Source of the DNA: Promethearchaeota archaeon | Lineage (GTDB): Archaea; Asgardarchaeota; Lokiarchaeia; Sigyniarchaeales; SOKP01 | Assembly: GCA_048940445.1 (NCBI GenBank) | Contig: JBHLON010000013.1 | Span: 1 to 64,000, forward strand | Length of the DNA stretch: 64,000 nucleotides | Reading direction: 5' to 3' | In this document: positions 1,289 through 50,708 of the stretch, piece by piece | Layout of the letters: the number at the start of each line of letters is the position of its first letter | Numbering within the stretch: position 1 is the stretch's first letter | Made by a program: the position numbers and the translations under genes | Notes under the pieces: model-generated | Database searches by the model: none | The model's input: only the letters and a program-made list of their open reading frames with translations | Told to the model about the DNA's origin: nothing

Positions 1289-2145
1289 AAAGTATGAATA
1301 GGCACCAAGTTCAAGAAACATTAGTAAAATTAAATTTAAAACCAAAGAAATCACTGGGTCAACATTTTTTAGTTGATGCCCAAGTGTTAAATAAGATAAT
1401 TTCCGAGGCTAATCTTAATAAAGAGGATATTATAGTTGAAGTTGGAACGGGTTTAGGAGTTTTAACAACTGAGTTAAGTTCAAAAGTTAAACAAGTATAT
1501 TCCTATGAGATTGACTTTAGATTGTTTCAATATACATCTCAAAAATTATCATCCCTTAGCAATGTAGAATTCTTTAATGAAGATATTTTAAAAACAAAAA
1601 TTCCCTATCATAATAAAGTTGTCTCAAATATCCCTTATACTATAACAGGTCCTCTATTTGAAAAAGTCTTTTATAATGAGCATCCCCCTGAAGGAATCTT
1701 AATCATAGAGAATACCCTAGCTGATAGAATTTTTGATTCAGAAACCTATAAAAAATCCTCAAGAATTTCTGTTTCATTTAACGCTTTTATGAATCCAATA
1801 AAGAAAACACCCATTTCTCCTAACAGTTTTTATCCTACACCTAAAATCAAACTTGCTCTCATTAAAGTAAAAGGAAAAGAAAAATTAAATCCTTTTTTAT
1901 TAGAAAATGAAACTAGAAGGTTCTTCTTAGCTCTTGTTGCTGGAATCATGCCCTACAAAAATAAGAATATCATTAATGCATTGGAAATATTTTTAAATAA
2001 CAAATTAGCAGTATCTATTCCAAAAAAAAGTTTATTGCCTTTTTTAAAACAACATAATATCCAAAATACTAAGGTTTTTGAATTTAATATAGACGAATTA
2101 ATTAAATTGTGTGCCCAATTGTTCAATTGGTTGGAAAATTGGTGA
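1285..2145 (+). CDS. rsmA: 16S rRNA adenine dimethyltransferase KsgA/Dim1
   Basis: KKSLGQHFL, EVGTGLGVLT, VSNIPY and FYPTPK motifs. Confidence 0.95.
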   Translation: MKSMNRHQVQETLVKLNLKPKKSLGQHFLVDAQVLNKIISEANLNKEDIIVEVGTGLGVLTTELSSKVKQVYSYEIDFRLFQYTSQKLSSLSNVEFFNEDILKTKIPYHNKVVSNIPYTITGPLFEKVFYNEHPPEGILIIENTLADRIFDSETYKKSSRISVSFNAFMNPIKKTPISPNSFYPTPKIKLALIKVKGKEKLNPFLLENETRRFFLALVAGIMPYKNKNIINALEIFLNNKLAVSIPKKSLLPFLKQHNIQNTKVFEFNIDELIKLCAQLFNWLENW

Positions 2146-2151
2146 AAAAAG

Positions 2152-2835
2152 ATTAAAATAGTACCTGATCCTTTAATTTTTACTCGTTCAAAAAATGTTT
2201 ATAGGCCCTCCGATGATTCATATATGATTATTGATTACTTTAGAGAAAATTTAACCTCGTCTCACTTTGATGGGCTTCAATTTAAAAGTATAAGAAACGT
2301 TTTAGATATGGGAACTGGTACAGGAATTATTGCTATTTTTCTTCTCTTAATTAAAAAACATTATCCCAATTTTAAACCTCAAATATATGCTTCTGATATT
2401 TTGAAGGAAGCTATAGATTGTGCCAAACTAAACGAAAAGTTAAATAATTTTGAAAATGAAATAGTTTATCTTCAATCGGATCTGTTTAAGTCCTTTCCTC
2501 AGAGTTTAAAACAAAAATTTAATATTATTATCTTTAATCCTCCATATTTACCTTCAATTGAAGATAGTAGAATGCCTTTTGACCCCAGTTGGAATGGAGG
2601 GGAAAAAGGAACCGAGACTTTAGAAAAATTTTTTGATCAATTTATTGAATTTATTGAATTCAATGGAAGTAAAAATTATATATATTTTGTAAACTCGAGT
2701 TTAGCCGGCAACAAGGAATTAGAAGATTTATATCATAAAAAAGGTTTTATCCATAAAATATTAAGAAAAAAACATTTATTTTTTGAAGATATAATACTAA
2801 ATAGACTTGAAATAAAAAATTCTATTTCTTTTTAG
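2152..2835 (+). CDS. HemK2/MTQ2 family protein glutamine methyltransferase; probable ATT start
   Basis: LDMGTGTG and FNPPY motifs. The family N-terminal motif VYRPSDDS lies upstream of the track start (2224). In-frame ATT 2152 follows SD GGTGA by 6 nt. Confidence 0.85.
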   Translation: MKIVPDPLIFTRSKNVYRPSDDSYMIIDYFRENLTSSHFDGLQFKSIRNVLDMGTGTGIIAIFLLLIKKHYPNFKPQIYASDILKEAIDCAKLNEKLNNFENEIVYLQSDLFKSFPQSLKQKFNIIIFNPPYLPSIEDSRMPFDPSWNGGEKGTETLEKFFDQFIEFIEFNGSKNYIYFVNSSLAGNKELEDLYHKKGFIHKILRKKHLFFEDIILNRLEIKNSISF

Positions 2836-2840
2836 CAATT

Positions 2841-4109
2841 TTATGAATTTTTAAAAGGGCGTCTCATTCTTCTTTTTTCCTGCAAAAGAATACCATTTTT
2901 GTTTAGTGTCCTAATTAAATTGTTGAATAAGAGGTCTAACTCTTGAGGTTTGAATACGGCTCTTCTGTGAGCTTCAATTTGGGGAATTGGAAGCCCATAA
3001 AATTCATTTAGACTTGAGATTGGCAATAAAATAGAAGAAATCATATCTGCCCTCTCTGCAGCTTCAGAATTAGAACATTTATAATCCATAAAAAATTCAA
3101 ATCTGCATGGATTATCATGTAATGCTGTTTTCAAGTAGAATGCATAAAAATTGAATGGAAAATAGTATGGAATTTCTTTTTTAATACCAGTGTCTCTTAT
3201 CTTATCAACATCTTTTTTGCAATTGAAAATGCAACTTCTTTCTGATTTATTTAGTATTCGGCCAAAAAAGTCTAAATCTGAGAAGTAATCCATCAGCAGA
3301 CGATAATTAATTTTAAGAAAATCAACTAACCTTGAAGTATTAGGTTTTAACATTTGAATAGAACTTCGGAGTGTATTCGTTAAGGCTGATGTTCTCGTAT
3401 CTTTGATAGATCCGATTAAAATAATTCCCTTTTCTCTACAATTATAATACAGTCTCTCATATTCTTTTAATAAAACATCATATTTTCTTGAAAGTTCAAT
3501 GTCTTTTGAAAAGAGATAATTTATAGGCATTATTACAATAGAACCATCTAATATAATAAGATCAATATCAGAATTTTTTGAAATAAGATGATTTAGAAGA
3601 TTCAATTCCATATATGTCATATCCATTGAGACATTGGTTTCTGCTTCACTTTCTCCACGGTTTATATAAGTTCCCTGTACATTATAATTGTTATATCCAC
3701 TTATATCGGGGAAGTAATCTATTTTAGAAGAATCATTCTGAAAGAAATGATATCTAACCGCAATTGCCTTTAAAAAAGAAAGGTCTACATTCATAAACTT
3801 TTTTAGGACTGAACTTCCATCAACACTTACGACATTCAGGCCCCTAATATTAGCCGGTAATACTTTCTTTTTAATCAAATTTTCTCTGATATCATAATTA
3901 GGATACTTAATCAATTCAGAAAAATCTAAATTCTTAAGATTTTTTAAAATGATTTCGATAAATTTTCTTTTTAATGCTTCGATTTCTAAATATTCATTGG
4001 CAATTTGCTTTAGATCATTTAATAAGATTTGTTCTCTTGTTAAACCTATTGAATCATAAATTTTTGGGTGATGTTTTTCTGTCTTAAGAAAATTGCTTTT
4101 AATTGTCAT
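2841..4109 (-). CDS. nurA: NurA family nuclease
   Basis: VVSVDGS, ILDGS, IGSIKD and YGLPIPQIEAH motifs. Confidence 0.85.
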   Translation of the reverse strand: MTIKSNFLKTEKHHPKIYDSIGLTREQILLNDLKQIANEYLEIEALKRKFIEIILKNLKNLDFSELIKYPNYDIRENLIKKKVLPANIRGLNVVSVDGSSVLKKFMNVDLSFLKAIAVRYHFFQNDSSKIDYFPDISGYNNYNVQGTYINRGESEAETNVSMDMTYMELNLLNHLISKNSDIDLIILDGSIVIMPINYLFSKDIELSRKYDVLLKEYERLYYNCREKGIILIGSIKDTRTSALTNTLRSSIQMLKPNTSRLVDFLKINYRLLMDYFSDLDFFGRILNKSERSCIFNCKKDVDKIRDTGIKKEIPYYFPFNFYAFYLKTALHDNPCRFEFFMDYKCSNSEAAERADMISSILLPISSLNEFYGLPIPQIEAHRRAVFKPQELDLLFNNLIRTLNKNGILLQEKRRMRRPFKNS

Positions 4110-4232
4110 TAGAATTATAAATTGAGAGTATAAATATTATAATAATGGGTTAATTAATTTTATAGTTTTTAAAGTTAGATCGGTGTAATAATAATTCAGC
4201 TAGGAGAAAATTTTTGGTTTTTAATTTTTCTA

Positions 4233-4841
4233 ATGATTCTCGAATTGATCATTTTATTGCTTCCTTTATACATTTCTGCTATATTAGAAAAAAAGACAAT
4301 TAAGGCAGAATTTAAAGAAATTGGCTTTTTTAGAGGTTTAAAAGGCACTTTCACTGTAGTATTAAGGATAATTTTAGGTGTAGATATTGGAATTTTTTTA
4401 TATTTCTTTGCAAGGTTATTTCTATTTCTCTATAAGGATATTCTAATTATATATTTATTTGGAACTCAATTTGTTGAAGAAGGAGTCTCAAATAGTATAA
4501 GCACAGAACCTATACATCCAAATTTCTTAGAAATTACTCTTATTATAATCTTACAAGTTTTAATTACAAGTCCTTCTGAAGAAGGATTCTTTAGGGGATT
4601 TCTTATTCAAAAATTTAACCGAAAATTAAAATTAAAGTACACAGTGGTAATATCTTCCACTTTTTTCGCCTTTTATCACGTGCCTCCTTTCTTAGTCCCA
4701 TTATCTACAATAATTACATATTTTGGATATTATTTTTTATTGGGGTTTTTACTTACTCTTATATTTATTTATTCTAATAAGTCTCTATTGATGTGCATAA
4801 TTTCACATTCAGTATTTAATATTTTAATCTTAGTTATATGA
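4233..4841 (+). CDS. CPBP/CAAX (Abi) intramembrane glutamic endopeptidase; may start at ATT 4194
   Basis: EEGFFRG, FAFYH and SHSVFN motifs; multiple TM segments. The open hydrophobic frame continues upstream to 4179. Confidence 0.9.
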   Translation: MILELIILLLPLYISAILEKKTIKAEFKEIGFFRGLKGTFTVVLRIILGVDIGIFLYFFARLFLFLYKDILIIYLFGTQFVEEGVSNSISTEPIHPNFLEITLIIILQVLITSPSEEGFFRGFLIQKFNRKLKLKYTVVISSTFFAFYHVPPFLVPLSTIITYFGYYFLLGFLLTLIFIYSNKSLLMCIISHSVFNILILVI

Positions 4842-5004
4842 ATGCTATCATATCGAAAAATTCCCTATTAAAAAGAATTATTAAATAATAATAGATATAA
4901 TTCTTATTAAAAGAAAATAATAAAATCTTATAGTTTATTAATTCTTAAGAGTAATTTAAAAATATCTAACAATTTTTGCTAAAAAATTTCCATCGTTGAG
5001 ATAT

Positions 5005-5550
5005 ATGACAGATTATGATTTTACTTTCAAATTGATGATGTTAGGGGACGCATCTGTCGGAAAAACATCACTTACAATTAGATATATCTCTGGATTTTTT
5101 TTAGAAGACCTTAAATTAACCATTGGTGTAGATTTTTATTCAAAAACTACATATTTTCAAGGAAAGAAAGTAAAATTACAAATTTGGGATTTTGGTGGTG
5201 AAGAACGTTTTAGGTTTTTACTACATCAATATTGTAAGGGTGCAAATGCTGCCTTCTTCCTTTATGATATAACCAATCGTTTATCATTAGATCATTTACC
5301 TGATTGGACACAGATTATACGAGAACATTCAGGTGATATACCAATTATGTTAATTGGGTCTAAATTAGATTTAGAAGAATATAGATCTGTACCAAGAGAA
5401 GAAGGAATTCTAGCCGCTAAAAAGTATAACCTCTCTTCATTTGCAGAATTATCCTCAAAAACTGGTCAAAATGTAGAAGAAGCATTTAATGTAATAACAG
5501 AAACCTTATTCGAACGTTATGGAACGCAAGAAAAACATGAAGATTTTTAA
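5005..5550 (+). CDS. Rab-like small GTPase
   Basis: GDASVGKT, TIGVDF, LQIWDFGGEERFR, SKLD and SSK (G1-G5). No C-terminal Cys. Confidence 0.92.
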   Translation: MTDYDFTFKLMMLGDASVGKTSLTIRYISGFFLEDLKLTIGVDFYSKTTYFQGKKVKLQIWDFGGEERFRFLLHQYCKGANAAFFLYDITNRLSLDHLPDWTQIIREHSGDIPIMLIGSKLDLEEYRSVPREEGILAAKKYNLSSFAELSSKTGQNVEEAFNVITETLFERYGTQEKHEDF

Positions 5551-5645
5551 TTTCAATTCAATAAACTATTAATTATCATGTGTATATACGCTCTTATACT
5601 CTTTGTTAATTCTTATCACCATTAATAGTAAAATTAAACTATAAT

Positions 5646-6521
5646 ATGGATTTTAAAGAATTAGGAAAAACAGGATTAAAAGTCAGTGAAATAGGGATTG
5701 GTACTGAACATTTATTCAGACAAACTCAAAAAACAGTAGACTCCGTTATTATTAAAGCTATAGAAAATAAAATTAACTACTTTGACATTCTTTTCTCTGT
5801 TAAACATTATCTTGAGAAATTAGTTTTCTCTTTGAAAGAATACAGAGAAGAATTAATAATAACGGGTCATCTAGGAACTATTGAGATAGAAGGTAAGCCT
5901 AAAAAGAATAGGAGTTTTCAAAAATGTAGAAAAGCATTTTTGAAAATGCTTTCCATATTAAACACAGATCACGTGGATATTCTTAATATTCAAGCAGTAG
6001 GAAAGATTGAACTTGAGAAAATCATGAAACCCAAAGGATTATTTGATTTGGCATCATCATTCCAAAACGAAGGAAAGGCGAATTTTCTGGGATTAAGCAC
6101 TCATGATATTTCAGTGGCTAAACAAGCAATAAAAAGTGGAAGGTTTGATATGATAATGTTCCCTCTTAATATAGCTAATCATCAATTACCAGGAAGAGAT
6201 GAACTCTTAAGTGAATGCTCAAAAAGTAAAATAGGTTTAATTGCAATAAAGCCATTCGCTGCTGGTAAAATATTAATGGTAAATAGAACTGTAAATATAG
6301 CGAAATATCAAACAGGAGGCTTAAGTTTAAAAATGAAGATTCCTAAAGATATTACTCCTTGTAAATGTATAAGTTACCTTAAATCACTTCCAGGAATATC
6401 AACAATTATTATGGGAGTAAAGAATTCAAAAGAATTAATAGAAAATCTTGAGTATTCTGAAAAACAGGAATATGAATTGGACTATAGTCCATATTTAGAC
6501 ATTTTTAATCATAGAATATAG
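5646..6521 (+). CDS. Aldo/keto reductase family protein
   Basis: LGKTGLKVSEIGIGT, INYFD, GLSTH and IAIKPFAAG motifs. Confidence 0.88.
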   Translation: MDFKELGKTGLKVSEIGIGTEHLFRQTQKTVDSVIIKAIENKINYFDILFSVKHYLEKLVFSLKEYREELIITGHLGTIEIEGKPKKNRSFQKCRKAFLKMLSILNTDHVDILNIQAVGKIELEKIMKPKGLFDLASSFQNEGKANFLGLSTHDISVAKQAIKSGRFDMIMFPLNIANHQLPGRDELLSECSKSKIGLIAIKPFAAGKILMVNRTVNIAKYQTGGLSLKMKIPKDITPCKCISYLKSLPGISTIIMGVKNSKELIENLEYSEKQEYELDYSPYLDIFNHRI

Positions 6522-6616
6522 ATCTCAAATTAAAAAAAATGTTACTTAGACAAAAATTATAATCTCCGAGAAGCTTCTTTGAATCGATTCCTATGAAAAA
6601 TTTATTTAGTCTAAAT

Positions 6617-8062
6617 TTAATTCTCTGTCTTATATCCTAATTTTCTTTTTAATCTTTCCAACTTTTCTTCATGTAATATCAATACCTGTTTTTTAATTTC
6701 TCTATACTCTCTTGTTAGTGGGTCTAAAGGATAATACCAAAGAGATATAAGTCCAAAAGCAATAAAAATTGCTGGAATAATTCCTAATAACATTTTTATA
6801 CCAAAAATTGCACTTTCTGGTTGATTTTCTCCTATACTTAAATCTGCCTGAAAGTTTGTTAGAAAAAATACTAAACCTGAAATTCCTGCTGCTACTGATT
6901 GAGCAGGTTTTGTAATCAATGCATCCGTTCCAAAATAAGCTCCTTCTCTGCGTACTCCAGTCTCTAATTCATCTTTATCAATTATATCACCAATTAAGGT
7001 GAAAACGAGTAAGGCTTGGCCTGAGAGCCCTAATCCAACTATTATGAATGAGATATTAACAAGATATATATTATTTGCGAAAGTCAGGAGAATAAATCCT
7101 GATAAGCCTAAAAGTGAAAGATATAATAGGGCTCTTTTGTTTCCTTTCTTTTTAGTAAGCATTAAACCTATTGGAAGTCCTAAAACGGTAAAGATCAAAA
7201 AGAGGAGTAATGGAATAGATGAAAGTATATTTGTTGATGACAGCCTTAATACATATTTTATATAAAATGGTAAATTAGAATTAACTGAAAATAAGACATA
7301 TGTCATTGTAAAGTTAAAAATTACATAAGTTATGAAACTTTTATTTGCCAAAACATATTTTGTAGAGGGCCATAAGTTTAAGGCTTCTTCTTTTTCAGGT
7401 AATAGCTCGGGACGTTCCTTAATGCCAAATGCTGTAAAAGTTAAAAACCCTGCACCACAAATCGCTAAAATTAAAACAATAATTTGGAATGTAAAAATCT
7501 CTTGAAAATGTGGTAATGGATTAAAAAAGATAAATAAAGTAGGAATCACATAAGTTAAAGCAATAGCAATTCCTGCCCCTAATCCAGAAAAAATGTTTAT
7601 TTTAGCCCGTTCTTCCGGATTTATAGATAATTCTGCTAATAATGAGCTAAAGCACAAAGAAACAATAGTAAAAAATGTATCATATACTAATAAAGAAATT
7701 AATAACCAACTAAATTTAAACCAAGAAGAGCTATTTATTGGTACAAGATATATAATCATAAAGCTGACTGACAACAAAGGACCACATATTCTTAAATATG
7801 GAATTCTTCTTCCATATTTCGTCCTAGTTTTATCAGAAATATGCCCAAAAATAGGATCATTAAGGGCATTCCAAATAAAATATATAATCCAAGCAAGCGA
7901 CCATAGCCAAGGAGGTAATAAAATCATTTCCGTGTAAAATATAAACGTCCAGGTGAAAAATAATCCCGTCGTTAAATTAATACCAAAAGCTCCAAATCCA
8001 CCAAAAAATTTAATCTTTAGAGAAACTTTGTCATAGGTTAATTTTTTCATTTTCGTTTCCAT
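6617..8062 (-). CDS. MFS transporter, GPH (MelB/MFSD2-like) family
   Basis: WNALNDPIFGHISDKTRTKYGRRIPY and DIIDKDELETGVRREGAYFG motifs; about 12 TM segments. Confidence 0.92.
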   Translation of the reverse strand: METKMKKLTYDKVSLKIKFFGGFGAFGINLTTGLFFTWTFIFYTEMILLPPWLWSLAWIIYFIWNALNDPIFGHISDKTRTKYGRRIPYLRICGPLLSVSFMIIYLVPINSSSWFKFSWLLISLLVYDTFFTIVSLCFSSLLAELSINPEERAKINIFSGLGAGIAIALTYVIPTLFIFFNPLPHFQEIFTFQIIVLILAICGAGFLTFTAFGIKERPELLPEKEEALNLWPSTKYVLANKSFITYVIFNFTMTYVLFSVNSNLPFYIKYVLRLSSTNILSSIPLLLFLIFTVLGLPIGLMLTKKKGNKRALLYLSLLGLSGFILLTFANNIYLVNISFIIVGLGLSGQALLVFTLIGDIIDKDELETGVRREGAYFGTDALITKPAQSVAAGISGLVFFLTNFQADLSIGENQPESAIFGIKMLLGIIPAIFIAFGLISLWYYPLDPLTREYREIKKQVLILHEEKLERLKRKLGYKTEN

Positions 8063-8293
8063 CTTATTTAACTCTAGTCAATACTGCTTAAAAACAAATA
8101 AATTATTTACATAATATAACAAAACAAGATGTTCAAGGAATTGAAGCTGCTTTAACTTATAATTTTTTAATTTCTATTATTTTATAAACTTCATTAATAT
8201 TTTTTGAGAAATAATGTATTCAAAAGGTTTAAATATAAAACCGTTGAAGATAAAATTAATCCGATAGGAAAAACTTTATCTGAATAAAATCAA

Positions 8294-10573
8294 ATGAATA
8301 ATCAAGTTAATCATATTAGCTATTCCTCACTGATCGCAATTCTTACCTATTTTTGTATTGAAGCTTTTTACAATTTGATGGTTAACTTCAACTCATTTAT
8401 TTTTTTGAACTTATCACAGACCTTAATTATCCTACCCTCTCTTCTTATCACTATCACTTGCCTAATTGTCGAATTTTTAGTATTTAAATCAAATCGCATT
8501 AAACAAGTAAATAGAATTTTCATAATTATTCTGATTATTTGCCTCCTTCGAATTTTTATCCAATTTATAGTATATCCATCTATAACAATCATCCTTAATT
8601 TCAGCTTGTTGTTATCAATATTCCTTTTAATTATCGAATTTTATCATACCTTACACTTGCCTTATTCAATAACGATTAGTGGCATTATTATAGGCATAGA
8701 AATACAATTTTTAATTCTTATTCTCAATATCTCTTCAAACATTAGCTGGAACATTAATAAAATTGTCCCTACGTTTTTATTTATTACTTTATTGGTTTTA
8801 TTTGATTACTTTTTGTTTTTACCTAAAAAACTTCGACAAGTTAAAATAGATACTAAAGATTCTTCATCAAAGATGGGCAAAAAGAAGCTATCTTACTTTC
8901 ACTTTATTATTTTGGGGATTTTATTTATCTTGTGCATGATATGGATCTTAAATCCTATGGCATTAGCCGCTTATGATATATTTGATTTAGTTAAAAACGA
9001 TTTATATGGCTTTTATGTACCTATTTGGTACTATAATTCATATGGATTTAGTTTTTATGTAATTATTATCATAGGATGTTTAATTGGTTCCTATTTTTTA
9101 TCAAATGTAATTTTTAATTATTTAAGTCAAAAGAACCAAAGAATTCTTCTTGCGATTACAATAATAATTTGTTCTATATCAAATATATTTGCTTTTTTTT
9201 TCCTAGAACATGATTCTTCTTATCTCTCAACTATCAATTTAATAATTCTCTGCTCTATTAATGTTTTTACATTAATTTTTTATTTACATTATCTTTTAAC
9301 TGTATATTTATTCTCAAATCGGAAAAAAAATTATAGAGGATTACTAATTTTTATTCTTACAGTTTTCTTCTTTATAATTTTGCAAGTAGAAATTTTATGG
9401 GGTCTAAAACCATCACTTATTTTTAATGTGATTACTCTTATTATACCACTTGCAATCCTTATCTTTTTTACAGAATTTATTCTTAACAAATTAATCAGAA
9501 ATGAAGGAGTTGTCAGCGAAATTAACTCTAAAATCTCAAGCGTTCCAAGAAATTATCATTTATTAATAATTTTCTTTTTAGGTATAATTCTTTTTATTAT
9601 GTATGTTAGTCCCTTTAGTTTCAATCCTTATTTAACTCATACTCTTTTTTTAATAACAACAATCGGAATTTCAATTATTATTATAGACGATATTTGGAAA
9701 ATAGTTTTAAGATTAAAGAAAAAAATTAATGGTTTTAAGATAAGATTTAATCCCCCGAGTTGGAAATATAGCTTAGTGATTTTTATTACTATTTTATTAG
9801 CTAATTGTATAGTCAATGATCTTTTATATCAAGAAAGTAAGTTTATTAGTCGAGGAAATATTTATAATCCAACTTTTATGACGTGGAATATTCATAATGC
9901 AATTGGCACGGATGATGTGTTTGATTTAGATAGAGTTGTAGAAGACATCAGAATTATAGATCCAGATATTCTCCTCCTAAATGAAGTTGATAGAGGTGCT
10001 TTAAAAACGAGTTTCGTCGATATACTTGTTTATATTGCCTTTAAACTTCATATGAACTACTACTATGGAAGCACATATTATAATCATTATGGAAACGCGA
10101 TTTTATATAAATGGCGAATGCACCTCTTTGAAGTTCAAAATATAAATCTTCCACAGCAATCTGATGATCTACGTTCAATGATTGAAGCTAAATTTATTTT
10201 TGGGCTTCAAGATTGGGTTATTTTTGGAACTCATTTGTCAACAAAAGAATCTGATCGTCTTTTACAAATACCATTCATTATTTCTGAAATTCAGACTATT
10301 AGTTTTTCCACTAATATTATCTGGATGGGAGACTTCAACTTTGAGCCAAATTCTATCGAATATTCGATGATTAACGGCACAAGTAGTTTAAATTTTACAG
10401 ATACCTATCGATTCCTTAACTCTGATGAAGGTTATACAGCTGAATTTAACAAAAACAGTATCCCCCAGAAACGGATAGATTATATCTTCTGCTCTCCTAA
10501 TTTGATTCCACTTACAAGTTATACTTTGTGTACAATTGCTTCGGATCATTGTGCTGTAATAACAAAATTTTGA
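8294..10573 (+). CDS. Polytopic membrane protein with C-terminal endonuclease/exonuclease/phosphatase (EEP) domain, CWH43/PGAP2IP-like architecture
   Basis: About 500 aa of TM helices, then MTWNIH, LNEVD, THLS, MGDFN, RIDYIF and SDH motifs. Confidence 0.8.
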   Translation: MNNQVNHISYSSLIAILTYFCIEAFYNLMVNFNSFIFLNLSQTLIILPSLLITITCLIVEFLVFKSNRIKQVNRIFIIILIICLLRIFIQFIVYPSITIILNFSLLLSIFLLIIEFYHTLHLPYSITISGIIIGIEIQFLILILNISSNISWNINKIVPTFLFITLLVLFDYFLFLPKKLRQVKIDTKDSSSKMGKKKLSYFHFIILGILFILCMIWILNPMALAAYDIFDLVKNDLYGFYVPIWYYNSYGFSFYVIIIIGCLIGSYFLSNVIFNYLSQKNQRILLAITIIICSISNIFAFFFLEHDSSYLSTINLIILCSINVFTLIFYLHYLLTVYLFSNRKKNYRGLLIFILTVFFFIILQVEILWGLKPSLIFNVITLIIPLAILIFFTEFILNKLIRNEGVVSEINSKISSVPRNYHLLIIFFLGIILFIMYVSPFSFNPYLTHTLFLITTIGISIIIIDDIWKIVLRLKKKINGFKIRFNPPSWKYSLVIFITILLANCIVNDLLYQESKFISRGNIYNPTFMTWNIHNAIGTDDVFDLDRVVEDIRIIDPDILLLNEVDRGALKTSFVDILVYIAFKLHMNYYYGSTYYNHYGNAILYKWRMHLFEVQNINLPQQSDDLRSMIEAKFIFGLQDWVIFGTHLSTKESDRLLQIPFIISEIQTISFSTNIIWMGDFNFEPNSIEYSMINGTSSLNFTDTYRFLNSDEGYTAEFNKNSIPQKRIDYIFCSPNLIPLTSYTLCTIASDHCAVITKF

Positions 10574-13940: not shown

Positions 13941-14234
13941 TTAACAGGAATCCTCAATTTTTCTAAGCTGAAAATATTCTCGACTCAATCTGTCTAAAGT
14001 TTCTTGAGATGCCCCTTTCCTCATCATAAATTTAATCAACTTCAATTTTTCTTTTATAAGATCTTGTTTAATCTTTTTTGGGTTATCTGAATTTAAAATA
14101 TAAGCTTCTAACTTCTGTTCTAAAGAAAGTTTCTCTTTTAGAAATGCCTTAAACTCTCTTACTATTTCTATATTCCAATTATCATATAATATCTTTTCAT
14201 CCTTCTCATTAAATCTAATTGTCTTAGTTGGAAT
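13941..14234 (-). CDS. 97-aa protein with ribbon-helix-helix-like N-terminus; ATT start; absent from the ORF track
   Basis: 98 open codons, (M)PTKTIRFNEKDEKILYDNW...RKIEDSC*. Preceded by a strong SD, AGGAGGAGGTG, 7 nt before ATT. No upstream in-frame ATG/GTG/TTG before a TGA. Confidence 0.7.
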   Translation of the reverse strand: MPTKTIRFNEKDEKILYDNWNIEIVREFKAFLKEKLSLEQKLEAYILNSDNPKKIKQDLIKEKLKLIKFMMRKGASQETLDRLSREYFQLRKIEDSC

Positions 14235-17238: not shown

Positions 17239-17418
17239 TTAATCATCTATCATTCTTTTATGGCTCTTAGAGCATGTTTCATAAGTACAATCATAAAAAC
17301 CCTCTTCCCAATCTTCTGTGGTGTTATAATGTTCCCAACAATATATTTTATCACATTCAGGGCAACAAGCATTTAATCGTTCATATGCATGATACTTTTT
17401 TATGAACCCATGAATTCC
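17239..17418 (-). pseudogene. Startless remnant of a Cys/His-rich protein
   Basis: 60 codons, GIHGFIKKYH..CCPECDKIYCWEHY..GFYDCTYETCSKSHKRMIDD*, directly preceded by an in-frame TAA. Confidence 0.5.
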
Positions 17419-34439: not shown

Positions 34440-34452
34440 TGAGTTAATTACA

Positions 34453-41806: not shown

Positions 41807-41817
41807 TTCGGGAATAC

Positions 41818-42642: not shown

Positions 42643-43178
42643 AATTCTTATTAAAAACTTCTTTTTTTAATATAGTTACTGCAATGAACAATCCATATTT
42701 CTTTATTTTTATTATCTTTGAATCTTAAGATTTATTTTTAGTGTTAATTTCTGGACAAATATATTAGAATCTTCTTCAAAAGTGTCACCATTATACTAAA
42801 CTCAGTCCTTCATAATAAATGAACTGATAAGGCAAGAGTTATAACTCTTTGAATAGAAATTTTGATAATGATAGTGAACAAATCTTTAGATGGAAACTTA
42901 TAGACTTATTTAATGAAGAAAGTAATATCTTAATATAATTAAAGCCCTATTCCATTGCGAGTTCAATTGATTGAAAGAGGTATTCTTAATATCCCCTCGT
43001 AGAATCTAAAACTCTAACCAAAATTTATATAGAACTGGTAGTTTTGATTCCTAGAAAATTTCAAAACTAATATATTAAATTCCAATTAAAGTAAAAAAAG
43101 TAAAAGAAATTAGAAAAATTCCTTATCTACTTTTTCATAGTTTTAAGTTCGTAAATTTTTTCGTTGGTAAATATTTAT

Positions 43179-43295
43179 TTATGACGATGCCGCCAAAAAG
43201 ATTAAAACTATAAATATCGCAATCGTTATGATAACTATACTACATAACTCAAGCAAGCATGCTGTATCAAAGAATTTTTGGTCCTTTAATCGCAT
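43179..43295 (-). CDS. 38-aa single-pass membrane microprotein, not in track
   Basis: SD AGGTGG 5 nt before ATG; MRLKDQKFFDTACLLELCSIVIITIAIFIVLIFLAASS*. Confidence 0.6.
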   Translation of the reverse strand: MRLKDQKFFDTACLLELCSIVIITIAIFIVLIFLAASS

Positions 43296-44130
43296 TTTTT
43301 CCACCTATTTAATTGTTAATTTTAAATTATGTTTGAACGTTTTTTAAAATTTCAATAAAAATAACAATCAAAAAATTAAGAAATAATCCTTGAAATTTTT
43401 AGAGAATCGAAAGAATCAATTATAAAAAAAAGAAAAAACTTCGAAACAACCAAAAATCAGATAATTTCGCCCCAATTAAAGGAAAATTCGGACTTGGATA
43501 TGGAGATCAAGTGATAATTCTACAAAATTATTTGATTATTTTTAATTTTTTACTTTTCTCAATTTTAATTTCATTTCTAATCTTTTTAACATATACTGAT
43601 CTTTCAATACAAGATTGTAGAAAATCATCACAACAACTCCAACTAGAGCACTTTTCCTCATTATAATTTAATGTCAAAATTAGTTTTTTATTTTATTTGT
43701 GAATTATGTTTTAAATCTATTTTCATTCATAAATGGATTAAATAGGTATAATAAAGTAGTGTTTATGAAAGTTAAAATCTTCAGCCAGAACTTCAAAATT
43801 AATATAAAAAAAGTATTTGATAGATTTATAAAAAATATGATTTTAATAAAATAAGCATATTCTTAGAGACTTATCTATAGCATTTCTTCCATTATCTTTT
43901 TTCAATACACTTCTTTTCTTGATTATTAGGGTATATATGACGCCAACGGTGTTGAAGGTGATATTAAATTTCAATCTTCAATAAAATTGCTTTTAGAAAA
44001 AATATAGGATAGTATAATTCTTAAAAATGAAATTTTTGTTAACAATAAGCTATCAACGGATAGTTATGATAAGATTTATTTTCCGCGCTAATTTTTAAAC
44101 AAATATATTTTCACCAATGAGGTAATCATT

Positions 44131-44583
44131 ATGCCCAATTGGGTCATTCATAATAAATGGACCGATAAGGTAGGGATAGACCGCTTAATCGCTAATTTCG
44201 TAGATAGAAATATTGATTATGGTACAGAATGGGCTTTTGATTGCAAAATTAAAAAACTCTTTAACGATGATGATACTATTATCTTAAGACAATTAAAATT
44301 TTTCCATTATAAAGATTTAGAAAAGAAGTATAGCAAAGAAAATCTGTACATAAAAGCATTTTATCTACACCACCTATTAGATTTTTTCATGGAAACCCGT
44401 ATAAATATTTATGACATCCAACGAGTATTTCAAGAATTTCTAGAGAGAAAAGTTGTCATTGAATTCACAGATATAAATGAAAAAACAATTAATTTTCAAA
44501 AAGAACTTAATGAGATTTTCGATTTATTGATGAAAAACAAGGAAGAACTGTTCATAGACCTTAGAGGAAATTCCAAAAAGTAA
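44131..44583 (+). CDS. Hypothetical protein, possible His/Asp metal site
   Basis: MPNW.IH.KW and LHH.LD motifs; SD GAGGT. Confidence 0.7.
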   Translation: MPNWVIHNKWTDKVGIDRLIANFVDRNIDYGTEWAFDCKIKKLFNDDDTIILRQLKFFHYKDLEKKYSKENLYIKAFYLHHLLDFFMETRINIYDIQRVFQEFLERKVVIEFTDINEKTINFQKELNEIFDLLMKNKEELFIDLRGNSKK

Positions 44584-44780
44584 TTGAATAAAAAATACCT
44601 AATTACATACCAACTAAAAAGTTAAACCATAGTAATTCTCCTAAAATCTTCACTTAAAGTTATAGTAAAAAATATATATTGGATATCATTAAAGTAGTTA
44701 TCATTTAATCTAAAATGGTTAATATTTGAATCTATTCAAAATTAATTTAATTAATAAAAATATTAGGTAATTGATGAAAA

Positions 44781-46085
44781 ATGTCTTCAAAACAAAAACA
44801 ACACTTAAATTTGGTTATTATTGGGCACATAGATCACGGCAAATCGACAATGATGGGCGCCCTTTTAATAGAAACAGGAGCAGTAACTGATAGGGAAGCT
44901 CGTGAATTAGAAAAATTAGCTAAAGAATATGATCGAGATTCCTGGTCCTATGCATTTGTCTTTGACAAATTAAAAGAAGAACGCCAAAGAGGTATTACAA
45001 TCGATTTAGCTTTCAGAAAATTTGAGACTCCTAACAAATATTTCACCATTATTGATGCACCTGGTCATGCTGACTTCGTAAAGAATATGATCACAGGCGC
45101 CTCACAAGCTGATGCTGCCATTTTGGTTGTATCTGGTAAAAAAGGTGAAATGGAAGTTGGAATTGCTGCTAATGGTCAAACAAGAGAGCATGCCTACTTA
45201 GCTCAAACCCTCGGAGTAAAACAAATAGTAGTTGCAATCAACAAAGCAGATAACTATAATTATAGTGAAGAACGCTTTAATGAATGTAAGGAAGCCGTTT
45301 CTGATCTCTTAAAAAACATAGGGTTCCCTGTTAAAAAGATTCCATTTGTCCCTGTTTCAGGATTAATGATGGAAAATCTTTCAAAGAAAAGCGATAAAAT
45401 GCCTTGGTATGACGGACCTACTTTGATTGACGCAATTGATAAATTTGAAATACCACCGAAACCAACTGACAAGCCATTACGACTCCCAATTCAAGATGCA
45501 TATCGAATTAAAGGAACTGGTGTTGTTCCAGTTGGTAGAGTCGAAACTGGAGTACTTAAGAAAGGTGACAAAATCATAATTATGCCAACAGAGTTTAAAG
45601 GAGAAATACGAAGCATTGAAATGCACCATGAAGAAATTCCACAAGCTGAACCAGGTGATAATGTAGGATTCAGTATTCGAGGCCTAGAAATGAAAGATGT
45701 GGGAAGAGGAGATTGTCTTGGGCATCCTAATAATCCACCTAATGTTATATTCCCAAATGGTAACTGGACAGGGCAAATCATAGTTATTTGGCATCCAACC
45801 GCTATTGCTCAAGGTTATACTCCAGTAGTTCATGCTCACACAGCTCAAGTAGCAGCAAAGTTCATAGAAATCAGTAAAAAACTCGATCAAAAAACTGGCG
45901 CCGTCATCGAAGATTCACCTAAATTTATTAAAAGAAACGAGGCAGCGATCATTAAATTACAGCCCATAAAAAAGATGTGTTTAGAGAAATATGACCAATT
46001 TGCAGAACTTGGGCGATTTGCTGTAAGGGATATGGGTAGAACGATCGCAGTCGGTATTGTAAAAGATATTGAGACAGGATCTTAA
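44781..46085 (+). CDS. tuf: Elongation factor 1-alpha
   Basis: GHIDHGKST, RGITID, DAPGH and LGRFAVRDMG motifs. Confidence 0.99.
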   Translation: MSSKQKQHLNLVIIGHIDHGKSTMMGALLIETGAVTDREARELEKLAKEYDRDSWSYAFVFDKLKEERQRGITIDLAFRKFETPNKYFTIIDAPGHADFVKNMITGASQADAAILVVSGKKGEMEVGIAANGQTREHAYLAQTLGVKQIVVAINKADNYNYSEERFNECKEAVSDLLKNIGFPVKKIPFVPVSGLMMENLSKKSDKMPWYDGPTLIDAIDKFEIPPKPTDKPLRLPIQDAYRIKGTGVVPVGRVETGVLKKGDKIIIMPTEFKGEIRSIEMHHEEIPQAEPGDNVGFSIRGLEMKDVGRGDCLGHPNNPPNVIFPNGNWTGQIIVIWHPTAIAQGYTPVVHAHTAQVAAKFIEISKKLDQKTGAVIEDSPKFIKRNEAAIIKLQPIKKMCLEKYDQFAELGRFAVRDMGRTIAVGIVKDIETGS

Positions 46086-46356
46086 AGCTATAATTCATTC
46101 TGTTTTTTTCTTAAATTTTTAATATTAAATATTTTTTAATTCACTATTTCTATGAGTATTTTATTGATTTATTATTCAATTTTCCGTTTTTTAAGATAGA
46201 TAGATAATTAATCAGATTCAACAAAACACTAATTATAGCTTAAGAACAATTTATTTATGAAATAAAATAAAAAGAATTAAATAATTAATGATTAGAGTAT
46301 CAATCAATACAATAAAAATTTAATATATAGAACTTTAAGTTAATAAAGTGGTATAA

Positions 46357-46515
46357 ATGGTTAATTGCTCAACTTTAGAAGAAGGAGATACCCTTGTTTG
46401 TGAGAATTGTGGACTTGAAATGAAGGTTACAAAAACATGTAGTTGTGGAGAAGAAGAGGGCGCTTGTACTGATATGGGATTTACATGCTGTGGAATTCCA
46501 TTAAGTAAAAAATAA
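46357..46515 (+). CDS. 52-aa Cys-rich desulforedoxin-like metal-binding protein, not in track
   Basis: MVNCSTLEEGDTLVCENCGLEMKVTKTCSCGEEEGACTDMGFTCCGIPLSKK*; CxxCG...CCG.P. T-rich tract follows. Confidence 0.8.
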   Translation: MVNCSTLEEGDTLVCENCGLEMKVTKTCSCGEEEGACTDMGFTCCGIPLSKK

Positions 46516-46573
46516 TGAATTGATTTTTTTTATTCTTTTTATTGCATAATCTTGAAAAATTTAAATCTCAACT

Positions 46574-46819
46574 TTATTTGAAATATTTTTTAAGAAATCT
46601 TGTAACATCTTGTAAAACTGATTTTTCAAGCACCCTAAGTAAATCTAAGGAACCTAATCCTCCGTCCGCGAGAACTAAATGCAATTCAGCTGAATTCTTA
46701 GCATACTTGTTAAAAATTAAAAAAAATTTAAAGTCTGGGATAAAATAGTCTTCGAAGGCCTTAACTAATTGCTTATAAACATTATTTTGAAAAGAAAGCT
46801 TTTCTATTCTACGTTCTAT
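46574..46819 (-). CDS. Possible ~81-aa hypothetical protein (ATA start) or gene remnant
   Basis: More than 85 stop-free codons in AT-rich DNA (IERRIEKLSFQ...LKKYFK*); no canonical start near the 5' end. Confidence 0.35.
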   Translation of the reverse strand: MERRIEKLSFQNNVYKQLVKAFEDYFIPDFKFFLIFNKYAKNSAELHLVLADGGLGSLDLLRVLEKSVLQDVTRFLKKYFK

Positions 46820-46943
46820 TCCTTTATTAAGGCATTAGAAAACTAAGAAATGTAATATTTTAACTGAAATTCACATGTTATGCGAATATCATTTTAATTT
46901 TTGAATTGAGGTTTATCCTTTCTATTTAAAGCAAATTAAGTAG

Positions 46944-47435
46944 AAAGGGTCGGTTAAGTTTTTTACAACTAAATCAAAAATTTGTATTGTTGGTGAAGGG
47001 GGTGTGGGAAAAACCTCTTTACTATCCTTATTACATGGAAAGGAAGTTCCAAAGAAACGTGTTCCAACCGTTGGATTAGAAGTAGAGGAATCTATATTAA
47101 ACGGAAAAAAGGTAAGCATTTGGGATTTAGGGGGTCAAGAACGGTTTAAATTCATGTGGAAAGATTTCCTACGGGGTGCAGGCTTAGCTGTGCTGGTGTG
47201 TGATTCTACAGAGAGCGGGGTAAGGAAAACTAAGGAAATTTATGATAGATTCGAGCGGAATTTGGGTACAAAAATCATTGCTATAGCGAACAAGCAGGAC
47301 TTACAAGGGGCGCTGAGTGCACAGGAAGTTCAAAAGAGGTTAGGCGGGTTAAAAACGTATGGAATGACTGCTATTCGTCCTGAGTTACGGCAAAGAATGA
47401 AGGACATATTAGAATATGAAGTCGCTACGTTTTAA
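46944..47435 (+). CDS. Arf/Arl-like small GTPase; true start uncertain, upstream of 47004
   Basis: KSKICIVGEGGVGKT, PTVG, IWDLGGQERFK.MW and NKQDL motifs. The track start falls inside the P-loop. Confidence 0.85.
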   Translation, partial: KGSVKFFTTKSKICIVGEGGVGKTSLLSLLHGKEVPKKRVPTVGLEVEESILNGKKVSIWDLGGQERFKFMWKDFLRGAGLAVLVCDSTESGVRKTKEIYDRFERNLGTKIIAIANKQDLQGALSAQEVQKRLGGLKTYGMTAIRPELRQRMKDILEYEVATF

Positions 47436-47992
47436 AACGCCTTCCCAATTAGATGAGCAATTCTTACGGGTTCAGGCATTTTTGAATCAATCCATAATTT
47501 CTTTAATAAATCATTCGCCTCATCAAAAGTTACTCCTTTTAAATGTAGATATATTTTTGAACTACCACCAGCTGTTTCTACTGAAGTCTCATATAGATCT
47601 CCTGCATTTATAATGTATTGGAGTTTCTTTTTATACCCTTTTGGAAATTTATTGATTAAGGCTACTTTAACCGAATCAAGATCAACTCCTCGTTCTGTTA
47701 CTGCTATGATAGGCTTTTTTAATCTAGCATAAATTTCTTCTAAATCGATAATATTAAATCCACCAAATGTTATCGTGTCTGTAAGAATATACTGAATATG
47801 TTTTTCGTTTTGCTTAGCAAGTGTAATTAACGCATTAGTAGCATCTTCTCCATCGATAGAAATCGGACTCATTATCACTCTAACTAGCCTAATACCTTGA
47901 CAAACTGCTCCAATCAATTGAGTTGTATTTAAATTTGATTTCAATTCGAATTTAGCATCATCAAATCCAATTGTAATGGGAAATTCTTTCAT
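47432..47992 (-). CDS. DUF99 family (endonuclease V-like) protein
   Basis: IGFDD, DGEDAT, ITFGGFNIID and PEPVRIAHLI motifs. Confidence 0.9.
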   Translation of the reverse strand: MKEFPITIGFDDAKFELKSNLNTTQLIGAVCQGIRLVRVIMSPISIDGEDATNALITLAKQNEKHIQYILTDTITFGGFNIIDLEEIYARLKKPIIAVTERGVDLDSVKVALINKFPKGYKKKLQYIINAGDLYETSVETAGGSSKIYLHLKGVTFDEANDLLKKLWIDSKMPEPVRIAHLIGKAF

Positions 47993-48447
47993 AATTTAGG
48001 TTTGGGGAGATATATTTTTATTGATTCTAGCAATTGTGTAAATGCAATAGTTGCATTTTGGATTTCTTCTGCTCTAACATTAAGATTACCAGAAAAATTT
48101 TCTACCATGATCCTAATCATGGCATCCATATTCATATTCCCTGAAAGCCAAATATAAGCAATTAATGCTTCAGCTGTATCAGCTAAGTCATGAGCATCAG
48201 CTCTAGTTTTTGCATATGGCTTCAGTTTAGCGTCCTTTAAGGCAACAGATAAAATCATTTTACTTACTTTTTTACCAGTTCTAATTATTTTATTGTTAGA
48301 ACTATTTTTCGTTAAATAGATAGACTTAGCTACCGAATATACAAAATTTACAATGCTATCTCCAATTTTTGCTAATCCTTTATCTGTACCTATTACTTTT
48401 TGAGATAGTTTAGAAGTTAAATCTTTTATTAAAATATTGTAGGACAT
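47989..48447 (-). CDS. Archaeal RNase III-like protein
   Basis: DKGLAKIGDSIVNFVYSVA and ADTAEALIAY.WL motifs; rpo11-DUF99 synteny. Confidence 0.8.
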   Translation of the reverse strand: MSYNILIKDLTSKLSQKVIGTDKGLAKIGDSIVNFVYSVAKSIYLTKNSSNNKIIRTGKKVSKMILSVALKDAKLKPYAKTRADAHDLADTAEALIAYIWLSGNMNMDAMIRIMVENFSGNLNVRAEEIQNATIAFTQLLESIKIYLPKPKL

Positions 48448-48497
48448 TAATAGTAGTTGAGATTCAAACTCTTATAAATTTTATAGAAAATCAGAAC

Positions 48498-48983
48498 TTA
48501 TTTTATAAGTGTTTTAAAAGCTTTTTCAACTTCATCCAATTCATTCTTTAGGGATTGTATAGCCTTCTGTAATATATTTTTTATTTTATAACCTTTTTCC
48601 AATCGGACAAACACCTCAGGGGGATCAATCCGAGTAACTTTATAAGCTGCTGAATTTACTCCTTCTGTACTGAGAAGATGTTTAACTAAAATATTTAAAA
48701 ATCCATGTGATTGGCCTTCTACGCTCAATCGATAATCATTTTCTTGTTCTGTCTTATGAATAGCTAGATTTAAATATTTATATTCCGGTGGTTTAGGAAT
48801 TTCTTCCATTTCATACTCAAGTTCTTCTTCTAATACTTCTTCATCTTCAGTATCTCTTTGTAATTCGTCTAGTTGTGTATCTTTTGATTTCTTTAAGGTT
48901 GGATATACAGTCTCAATATCATCAAGAAAATCATCATCTAATCCTTCAAGATCATCTTCCTTCTTAGGTTTTTTTTTTGCCAT
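48498..48983 (-). CDS. rpo11: RNA polymerase subunit Rpo11 (L) with acidic N-terminal extension
   Basis: EGQSHGFLNIL..L..GV..AAY motif; lies downstream of csl4. Confidence 0.85.
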   Translation of the reverse strand: MAKKKPKKEDDLEGLDDDFLDDIETVYPTLKKSKDTQLDELQRDTEDEEVLEEELEYEMEEIPKPPEYKYLNLAIHKTEQENDYRLSVEGQSHGFLNILVKHLLSTEGVNSAAYKVTRIDPPEVFVRLEKGYKIKNILQKAIQSLKNELDEVEKAFKTLIK

Positions 48984-49081
48984 CCTAATTACACCATAAC
49001 CATCAAATCTATTATTTCAAATGTAGAATAAAATAAATTTTTTTTGTTTTGCCTAAAACCAGAAATTTTGTAGATTCACTT

Positions 49082-49306
49082 CTATGATAAAAATTGATTA
49101 GCTAATTCCCTTAATCTTTCAATTGCTAGATATTGAAGATCTTTTGGACCATACAAAGTGACTTTTATTTCTTTTCCTTCCACTTCACAATTTAAATTAA
49201 GATAATTAACTTTTTTTTGAATATTTTCAAGAAATTTTATAGCATTATCTATCTTTCCACTTTGGTTATAAAAATGAATTACTCTTCTTCCTCCATGTTT
49301 TACCAA
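49082..49306 (-). CDS. Small conserved protein between csl4 and rpo11 (DUF2067-like)
   Basis: 74 aa; SD GGAG then TTG; conserved position; IKVTLYG motif. Confidence 0.6.
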   Translation of the reverse strand: MVKHGGRRVIHFYNQSGKIDNAIKFLENIQKKVNYLNLNCEVEGKEIKVTLYGPKDLQYLAIERLRELANQFLS

Positions 49307-49351
49307 AGTTCATCTCCTTTACCTTTTTTCAATATAATTAAGAAACAATAA

Positions 49352-49948
49352 TTAATACCTTAGGCTTTCATTAACATTTCCATAGTCATTTGCTAATTTT
49401 CTAGTTTCCACATTACCACATCTACTGCATCGTAATTTATTATGACCAATCTTTTCAAGATTTGTACCACAAATTACACAATCAGCATGGATAACACCCA
49501 AATTATTTCCAACGGTGCTTAATTTAAACTCATTTGTAGTTTGTTCGATTACTTTAGCACGAAGAACATCAGTTATTTGAAAGGCATCTGAAATTTTTTC
49601 TACATATTTATGTGAGATCTGTGAAACATGAATATTACCAAAATAAGAACTATTAAAGTGAAGTTTGTTATTTATTGTATGGAAATTTAATCCAATAGAA
49701 TATTGTCTTAAAAAAAGTACAGTTCCTATAACAATGTCACCAATTTTTACTGTTTTTCGATTTTCTTCTTGATGGCTTTTAATTTCAATTTCTTTTTTAT
49801 TTTTGTCAATTAAAATAATACCCGTTTTTGTAGCATAGATTTTGCCATCCTTTATATAAGAAGATTGCTTATCGGGAAGGAATTCTTCAACGACGCCTAA
49901 ATATTGACCAGTAATAACGATATCCTTATTTTCAATTTCTTTTTTCAT
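49352..49948 (-). CDS. csl4: Exosome RNA-binding subunit Csl4
   Basis: LG..EEFLP, S1 domain, and C..C..C..CG..E.RKLA zinc ribbon. Confidence 0.93.
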   Translation of the reverse strand: MKKEIENKDIVITGQYLGVVEEFLPDKQSSYIKDGKIYATKTGIILIDKNKKEIEIKSHQEENRKTVKIGDIVIGTVLFLRQYSIGLNFHTINNKLHFNSSYFGNIHVSQISHKYVEKISDAFQITDVLRAKVIEQTTNEFKLSTVGNNLGVIHADCVICGTNLEKIGHNKLRCSRCGNVETRKLANDYGNVNESLRY

Positions 49949-50060
49949 ATATTTCAAAACATTCTTTTAATTTCTCTATTTAATTATTATTAAATAAATT
50001 AATTAAATTTATCCTTACTAATTTATAAAAAGTCTAACTAAATCTGAGTTTCAGGCGTTA

Positions 50061-50708
50061 ATAATTAAGAAAAAAGAAATAAGTTCTATTATTCAAAAGA
50101 CAACTACATTTTCTGATCCCAAAATCGAATTAGAGCAGTATTGTATTGATGCAGTTAGTGCTGTAGATATTGCTTTTTTTGCTGGGTTTGAATTTAATGA
50201 TATTACAGATAACTTGATTTTTGATTTTGGTGCTGGAACAGGAAGATTATCTATTGCTTCTGCCTACTTTCTACCAAAATATGTTATAAGTATTGACATT
50301 GATTTTTTAGCATTAAAAATCCTTAAAGAAAATATTGATAGACTTCAATTGGATCACATTATATTTCCTTTATGTGGTGATATCAAAAATTTAGAACTTT
50401 CTAAACAATTTTTGTCAAAAATTAAAAGAATTACTACAATTATGAATCCTCCTTTTGGAGTGCAAACGAGTAGAGCTGATAGGAGTTTTTTAAAGAAAGC
50501 ATTTGAATTTTCTGATGTGGTATACTCAATTCATTTAGCCAATGAAAAAGTGCATAATTTTATTGTAAACTTTATAAAAGTTTCAAATTGGCAAATTGAT
50601 TATTATTTTCCTTTTAAATTAAAGCTTGATAAAACTTATGAATTTCACAGTCAAAAAACAAAAAAAATTGATGTAACGATTTATAGATTTATAAAAACAC
50701 GTTATTAA
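50061..50708 (+). CDS. METTL5-family rRNA m6A methyltransferase; probable ATA/ATT start at 50061-50064
   Basis: DFGAGTG and MNPPFG motifs. The family N-terminal motif FSDPKIELEQY is in frame upstream of the track start (50214). Confidence 0.85.
   Translation: MIKKKEISSIIQKTTTFSDPKIELEQYCIDAVSAVDIAFFAGFEFNDITDNLIFDFGAGTGRLSIASAYFLPKYVISIDIDFLALKILKENIDRLQLDHIIFPLCGDIKNLELSKQFLSKIKRITTIMNPPFGVQTSRADRSFLKKAFEFSDVVYSIHLANEKVHNFIVNFIKVSNWQIDYYFPFKLKLDKTYEFHSQKTKKIDVTIYRFIKTRY

Follow-up and report, generated by a model that had tools for sequence, protein, structure and literature searches.

Probable translation starts at ATT, ATA and ATC codons throughout a lineage of Promethearchaeota, and a possible feedback through the initiation factor aIF1

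Where does translation begin in a gene whose conserved N-terminal sequence is preceded by no ATG, GTG or TTG codon? Several genes raise this question in positions 1-64,000 of contig JBHLON010000013.1 (C107; this stretch of 64,000 nucleotides (nt) is hereafter the window) from a Promethearchaeota archaeon, a metagenome-assembled genome (MAG; G000) of 3.64 Mb, 30% GC and 93% completeness. A sequence-only reading of the window had proposed that four of these genes initiate at ATT or ATA behind Shine-Dalgarno (SD) motifs. Its coordinates for the lack of any canonical codon (ATG, GTG or TTG) ahead of the conserved N-termini proved correct for all four. The spacings of rpo4 and rps7, to which it had likened the distance from SD to start, were also as it gave them, and the SD-spacing peak is found genome-wide. 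From comparison of G000 with related genomes (G002, G007, G017, G019, G025 and others), we conclude that ATH codons (ATT, ATA or ATC) very probably are real translation starts.

In the HemK2/N6AMT1-like gene the first canonical codon is ATG 2224, downstream of ATT 2152. The public record holds a short form of 203 residues from that ATG and no full-length HemK2. Alignment to N6AMT1 nevertheless begins at residue 15, upstream of ATG 2224, and the homologous start codon is ATH in 25 of 30 genomes. In the METTL5-like gene ATA 50061 stands just before ATT 50064, and the first canonical codon, TTG 50214, from which the 164-residue record begins, is 50 codons on. Read from ATT 50064, the protein aligns to both PH1948 (PDB 1WY7) and human METTL5 from residue 2. 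Across 30 genomes its start codon is ATT in 15, ATA in 13, and ATC and ATG in one each; 27 of them have no canonical codon at or before this position, and an in-frame stop lies within four codons upstream in 22 of the 30 loci. On these alignments, N-termini upstream of the first canonical codon are needed in both proteins.

On another explanation the isoleucine would simply be a conserved residue, and translation would begin either at the GTG of the SD itself, with or without a frameshift, or at the canonical codon that follows. At 30% GC, ATH makes up about 10% of all codons. In most HemK2 orthologues the SD's GTG lies in frame three codons before ATH, where a gene caller would pick it as the start, and genome-wide 23 of the 85 ATH calls made with confidence have an in-frame GTG inside the SD, possibly a start itself; both observations count against ATH initiation. 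However, the frame of the HemK2 spacer varies among relatives, such that in G000, G017 and G010 the GTG falls into another frame, and G019 carries a TAG between GTG and ATT, directly before ATT. Neither METTL5 nor the gene for initiation factor aIF1, discussed below, has a usable GTG. Downstream starts, for their part, would remove the VYxPxxD motif of HemK2 and 50 METTL5 residues that align to solved structures. They would also have to account for a conserved gene of 552 codons on C21 (33627 nt into the minus strand), the first 348 codons of which include no ATG, GTG or TTG; it has an ATC start directly after TAG, and ATC or ATT in relatives. We regard this explanation as highly improbable.

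Genome-wide, about 3,360 genes of G000 were called with a hexamer model, and start codons were estimated by expectation maximization (EM), with all 61 codons free, over 3,154 of them. The SD motifs GGTG, GAGG and AGGT peak 6-11 nt upstream of unambiguous ATG starts, and the anti-SD GAUCACCUCCU is the standard 3' end of 16S rRNA, as seen in two 16S rRNAs of the same genus. At SD sites without a canonical explanation, the in-frame codon 8 nt after the "T" of the SD is ATH in 47% (54/116), against a background of 13% where the distance is 13-23 nt and of 9% in the other frames (p 3e-6 and 4e-12, respectively, for distances of 6-10 nt). Behind strong SDs only TTG, ATA, GTG, ACG, ATT and ATC are enriched at 7-9 nt; GTT showed no enrichment behind SDs. 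By homology only, 390 genes had a distant orthologue; 32 of them were flagged, and about 17 of these, judged by eye, need a non-canonical start (14-16 ATH, two ACG and the TTT of an Arf-like gene). The resulting value of about 4% is a floor, because this approach overlooks any gene that has an early canonical codon or the GTG of its SD in frame. The EM model assigned 73.9% of starts to ATG, 11.9% to TTG, 4.1% to ATT, 3.4% to GTG, 3.0% to ATA, 0.7% to ATC, 0.6% to ACG and 0.3% to CTG, with every other codon at or below 0.3% and TTA, AAT, AAA and TTT each below 0.15%. Its ATH total of 7.8% (ACG and CTG together, 0.9%) is an upper figure, corrected to about 5%, since the model recovered 12 of 16 validated ATH genes and, to the detriment of our reading, gave ATH a posterior of 4.1% on 170 ATG genes validated by their orthologues. 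We estimate that 5-8% of G000 genes, or 170-260, would start at ATH. The window, where four to five of about 60 genes had been proposed, has five to six, slightly above the genome-wide share, and the breadth of the spectrum (TTG, GTG, ATH, ACG, CTG) fits the relaxed start-codon selection suggested earlier. The ACG starts (about 0.6%; a GcvT-like gene and others) and a few CTG starts behind SDs lie on C69, C94, C41, C53 and C49, and two of the ACG starts are kept in G017.

The proposed starts also behave as starts in their sequence context and in their evolution. Residue 2 is Ser, Thr or Pro after 35 of 87 SD-spaced ATH codons (40%) and after 19 of 172 distant ones (11%; p 2e-7), a pattern resembling that after Met and an indirect sign that Met may be placed at the ATH codon. 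Among confident ATH calls with a same-genus homologue, the aligned codon was ATH in 21, ATG in seven, TTG in four and another codon in one, the last being a contig end; with six rows of Rab paralogues removed, the non-ATH codons were ATG in five and TTG in one. Where an ATH start has changed in a relative it has become ATG or TTG in 11 of 12 cases, while internal Ile codons that change become non-start codons in 88%. Runs of SD pairing of at least 5 occur in 8 of 16 homology-defined ATH genes and in 317 of 2025 ATG genes (p 0.0015); the corresponding shares are 16% for ATG, 39% for TTG and 46% for GTG calls and 50% for homology-picked ATH genes, from which a strong SD appears to compensate for a weaker start codon. 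Initiation at AUU and AUA, as first proposed, thus finds backing in ATG/TTG exchanges, upstream in-frame stops, the SD peak and the Met-like choice of residue 2, and extends to ATC. Alignment of Lokiarchaeial orthologues, which the sequence-only reading had recommended, places ATG at the same codon in some relative for each of METTL5, the CPBP protease and a conserved 97-residue protein.

Assembly error or pseudogene formation has a vanishingly small probability. The genome is a MAG, and agreement at the sites rests on contigs, not raw reads, some of them (X3 and X11) from studies shared with possible source runs. Against this, the same state recurs in 30-67 genomes, each assembled separately, in which ATT, ATA and ATC replace one another synonymously, and assembled contigs of other samples agree: there are no differences at the HemK2 site (X3, X11) or the 14234 site (X3), and no indels were listed at the four sites in the stretch compared.

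ATH use is common to the genus. The EM model gave ATH shares of 8.4% in G017 and 7.2% in a pool of distant same-genus genomes. The control was 400 kb of G044, from a sister family of the same order and matched for GC (31%); over its 315 genes the share was 0.4%, also from an ATH-rich prior, against 4.7-10.5% in size-matched subsamples of G000. For the few G000 ATH genes with an alignable homologue in G044, a canonical codon lies at the start, or close to it, in the G044 gene. Weighing against the breadth of this comparison, the control is one genome and the related genomes are not independent samples. Frame-blind pattern counts as a survey of other families were discarded, having given no signal even in G000. 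The start spectrum of G044 (L139-L158) is itself different, with about 2% CTG and almost no ATH. Taken together, the comparisons argue that ATH initiation is real and lineage-wide, and it is unpublished as far as we found: a search of the literature, mostly outside subscription journals, found no report of ATH starts in Asgard archaea.

What would permit such starts? Attention falls on the gene for aIF1, where the start is ATT in 64 and ATC in three of all 67 scored loci of relatives. A canonical codon is lacking at these loci, a stop precedes the start by 1-3 codons, and the SD spacing, at 10-11 nt, is long. In none of the 67 is the start ATG, which METTL5, CPBP and the 97-residue gene each have in some relative. 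In other families its apparent start is TTG (G044, G037, G058), ATA (G042, G049, G059, G060) or ATG (G055, G047). The layout of the ATH genes at large, with the SD 7-9 nt before the ATH codon, nothing canonical upstream, and ATG or TTG at the same position in relatives, suggests the following scheme. Ordinary initiator Met-tRNA (anticodon CAU) would read ATH with a third-position mismatch; the SD would prolong the stay of the 30S subunit at the codon, so that a match of two pairs suffices, start-codon checking being less strict in this lineage. The level of aIF1 would settle, as with bacterial IF3, where SD-led AUH initiation stays productive, and ATG might then drift to ATA or ATT in any gene with a good SD, the genome being AT-rich. 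Since AUU-started aIF1 would be made only while AUU initiation works, such a loop would hold stringency permissive for SD-led AUH. Both IF3 and eIF1 autoregulate through weak starts of their own (PMC4705826). We consider it likely that these are intact genes whose ATH codons are read by Met-tRNA at a relaxed stringency, with help from the SD and held by aIF1; that the feedback loop is itself the cause of ATH initiation we favour by a narrow judgement. The translational tuning layer proposed earlier is indicated for aIF1 only.

Some findings sit uneasily with this role for aIF1. The gene was not found in the G000 assembly. Its loss was rejected as an explanation, because aIF1, Tsr3, 16S rRNA and a neighbouring Rab gene, adjacent in relatives, are all missing from G000, which argues for an assembly gap, and 29 of 36 same-genus genomes have aIF1. 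The link between its start codon and the genome-wide ATH rate comes from two lineages (ATT in the genus, TTG in G044). Furthermore, no lineage-specific lesion was found in 16S rRNA, uS9, Nep1, Tsr3 or aIF2-gamma, and the inspection of initiation factors for changed fidelity residues, which the sequence-only reading had advised, turned up none specific to the lineage.

It is unlikely, in our judgement, that the starts are real through a less stringent ribosome or aIF2/aIF1A, with the ATT of aIF1 merely another drifted start. Free exchange of ATH with ATG in many ordinary genes would suit such drift. Also in favour of this explanation are the presence of two intact aIF1A paralogues (C59:86060-86449 and C4:21288-21719 of G000) and a Trp in loop 1 of aIF1 at the position of Pyrococcus abyssi Y32, a residue that stabilizes the 30S:mRNA complex (PMC6237735). 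However, the same Trp is found in ATH-poor G044, by which the change from Tyr was rejected as a cause, and the absence of ATG reversion in aIF1 is unlike the ordinary genes. Moreover, G926, U966, G1338/A1339 and C1400 of 16S rRNA are standard in the two relatives, as is the anti-SD, so altered P-site bases were set aside; uS9 ends in Arg, and loss of the U966-modifying Nep1 and Tsr3 was rejected given their presence in 32 and 29 of 36 same-genus genomes. G1408 is also seen in the two relatives, as is usual in TACK and Asgard archaea. Loop 1 (L089-L118) reads KWG in the order Promethearchaeales; elsewhere, among the orders sampled, it is RYG or KYG. An N-terminal helix-hairpin-helix domain (PF14520) is fused to aIF2-gamma (C59:75166-76734 of G000, equivalent to L357:1480-3048 on the minus strand) in about two thirds of the genus, with a patchy distribution and no match in other families; it was dismissed as a cause, being absent from several ATH-using genomes of the genus, e.g. 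G002 and G027.

Alternatively, the starts may be real and caused by a modified C34 in the initiator tRNA in place of loose proofreading, as mammalian mitochondria carry 5-formylcytidine at C34. The initiator tRNA gene of G000 (C139) and 29 relatives, introns aside, has anticodon CAU, A1-U72 and three G-C pairs, so that an altered anticodon was discarded and AUH would be read either with a third-position mismatch or via an unseen C34 modification. The great excess of third-position variants (7.8%) over ACG plus CTG (0.9%) is what a C34 modification would give, and G044, with TTG, GTG and CTG but hardly any ATH, would make the difference between lineages wobble-specific. On the other hand, the start ratio ATT:ATA:ATC in G000 (52:38:9) is close to its coding Ile usage (52:33:15), which argues against a modification favouring one base. 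A change of the agmatidine type would restrict reading to AUA and prevent that of AUG, and ACG, CTG and possibly GTT are used too. This explanation seems to us quite unlikely. The tRNA gene itself (5' end at 12980 of C139, minus strand; L186) has up to three apparent introns, in the anticodon loop, variable region and T loop, in combinations that differ across the genus, and was missed by both ARAGORN and Rfam.

Two further routes to ATH starts were considered and rejected. For termination-reinitiation as a general route, overlap with or a spacing of 0-20 nt from an upstream gene occurs in 26% of ATH and 37% of ATG genes with a strong SD, and 31% of ATH genes come first in a divergent unit; ATH genes are thus not tied to upstream stops. 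A-to-I editing would account for ATA only, and not for ATT or ATC.

The preferred reading, of ATH initiation at relaxed stringency held by aIF1, has partial counterparts elsewhere. In Escherichia coli, infC and pcnB (AUU) are the only two confirmed non-canonical starts, and AUA, AUC and AUU reporters give 1-2% of AUG (10.1101/063800). The likeness to infC lies in an SD-led AUU start and a fidelity factor whose own gene begins at AUU (10.1101/063800; PMC4705826), whereas here some 170-260 genes and all three ATH codons would be involved, the factor (aIF1, of SUI1 fold) is unrelated to IF3, and the feedback is inferred. Eukaryotic eIF1, the homologous factor, is likewise translated from a weak start (PMC4705826), weak however by poor AUG/Kozak context, while aIF1 here combines ATT with a 10-11 nt SD spacing and is SD-led, without long scanning. 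Within archaea, where a review lists AUG, GUG and UUG as starts (PMC7531240), the factor set (aIF1, aIF1A, aIF2) is the same and the initiator tRNA and anti-SD are normal here (PMC7531240; PMC6237735). Yet ATH is about as common as GTG or more so in G000, while Sulfolobus solfataricus aIF1 rejects AUU in vitro, on an AUU model mRNA (PMC4705826). SD use is clear in G000, although SDs were found not to be prevalent in MK-D1 (PMC7531240). Third-position tolerance at the start codon is shared with a further system, and differs from it in that this is a free-living cell with SD-led starts and nothing suggests internal reassignment of ATA. That system is the animal mitochondrion, where AUA, AUU and AUC starts occur on leaderless mRNAs with one modified tRNA-Met and AUA is reassigned.

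Near-cognate starts are otherwise counted in single genes per prokaryotic genome, and an estimate of about 170-260 in a free-living archaeon would mean that the aIF1/aIF2 system is able to work at quite different stringency, in the group closest to eukaryotes. Autoregulation of a fidelity factor through a weak start, if present, suggests that archaea resemble bacteria and eukaryotes in this respect. A practical consequence is that standard gene callers cut the fronts of such proteins: the public entries of HemK2, METTL5, CPBP and the Arf-like GTPase are short, and confident ATH genes lacking an upstream canonical codon would lose a median of about 28 codons, among them SMC, PheT, ATP synthase D, eS26, Rab-like GTPases and a roadblock protein (named from N-terminal motifs only, not by family search). 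Work on eukaryotic-signature proteins of Asgard archaea in this family may thus rest on wrong N-termini.

Table 1. Features of the window with a bearing on start-codon choice.
Feature	Positions	Strand	Start or signal	Basis or remark
SD GGTGA	2141-2145	+	SD of HemK2	TGA is the stop of upstream ORF 1285-2145, in frame with HemK2
HemK2/N6AMT1-like methyltransferase	2152-2835	+	ATT 2152, 227 aa	orthologue ATH, N6AMT1 alignment
CPBP/Rce1-like protease	4188-4841	+	ATA 4188, ATA 4191 or ATT 4194	Pfam PF02517
97-aa conserved protein	13941-14234	-	ATT 14234	SD AGGAGGTG 14249-14242
54-aa Cys/His-rich ORF	17239-17403	-	ATA 17403	weak zf-AN1 match, E 0.09
Arf/Roc-like small GTPase	46959-47435	+	homologous start TTT 46959	Pfam Arf/Roc/Ras
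Weak SD AGGCG, conserved	50053-50057	+	upstream of METTL5	GGCG core in 28 of 29 loci that include the site
METTL5-like methyltransferase	50064-50708	+	ATT 50064, 214 aa	orthologue codons, PH1948 alignment

Three other window genes have probable ATH starts (Table 1). In the CPBP gene a GGTG lies at 4182-4185 and the first ATG is 4233. The start had been placed at ATT 4194; the absence of a canonical start stands, while the ATG of G029, G025 and G016 and the ATA of G017 align to ATA 4188 instead, and the three candidates cannot be told apart. The 97-residue gene has its first canonical codon 63 codons after ATT 14234, and its start in eight loci is ATT (two), ATA (four), ATC and ATG, with a TAG immediately before it in four. 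The two copies in G063, one with ATG and one with ATC, both follow TAG directly. Its earlier label as a ribbon-helix-helix-like protein found no match in Pfam, and the matches in the ESM Atlas are hypothetical proteins. For the Cys/His-rich ORF, a fifth ATH gene that the sequence-only reading had missed, a single orthologue (G019) carries ATG at the codon of ATA 17403. A three-codon out-of-frame ORF (ATG-GGT-TCA-TAA, 17411-17400, minus strand) ends across ATA 17403, and in G019 the corresponding arrangement is an ATGA overlap; local reinitiation at ATA 17403 is possible.

The Arf-like GTPase is a more extreme case. As had been noticed, it lacks a canonical start, though its homologous codon is TTT and not ATH. 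Counted from the T of AAAGGGT (46944-46950), TTT 46959 is 8 nt downstream, with ATT 46980 as a fallback. Across 26 genomes the homologous codon is TTG in 13, GTT in six, ATT in three, and GTC, CTG, TTA and TTT in one each; up to and including this position, G000, G017, G025 and G007 offer neither a canonical nor an ATH codon. The six codons that follow vary synonymously and so look coding. Initiation of this gene by double-mismatch codons is evenly poised, in our assessment, with its negation; alternatively, those four genomes would start at ATT or ATA seven codons downstream. Among other orthologues three weak cases of double-mismatch starts were seen, none convincing. In G032 HemK2 (L008) the homologous codon is GTT, 7 nt after the "T" of the SD and possibly a second GTT start, with the SD's in-frame GTG as the alternative. 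A tentative extension, which we hold to be rather doubtful, is that the whole family proteome is translated at lowered stringency through the AUU-aIF1 loop, with double-mismatch GUU, GUC and UUU starts as in the Arf-like gene, and that the aIF1 codon of each lineage would predict its start spectrum.

Outside the window, the gene for DNA primase DnaG of G000 contains a frame-shifting insertion of 37 nt after FGQ (C67:4641-4677, plus strand), which has TAA at its end. An insertion of 34 nt is found at the same site in G017 (L268), while G008 is uninterrupted, and a short inverted repeat lies within; it is a candidate archaeal mRNA intron.

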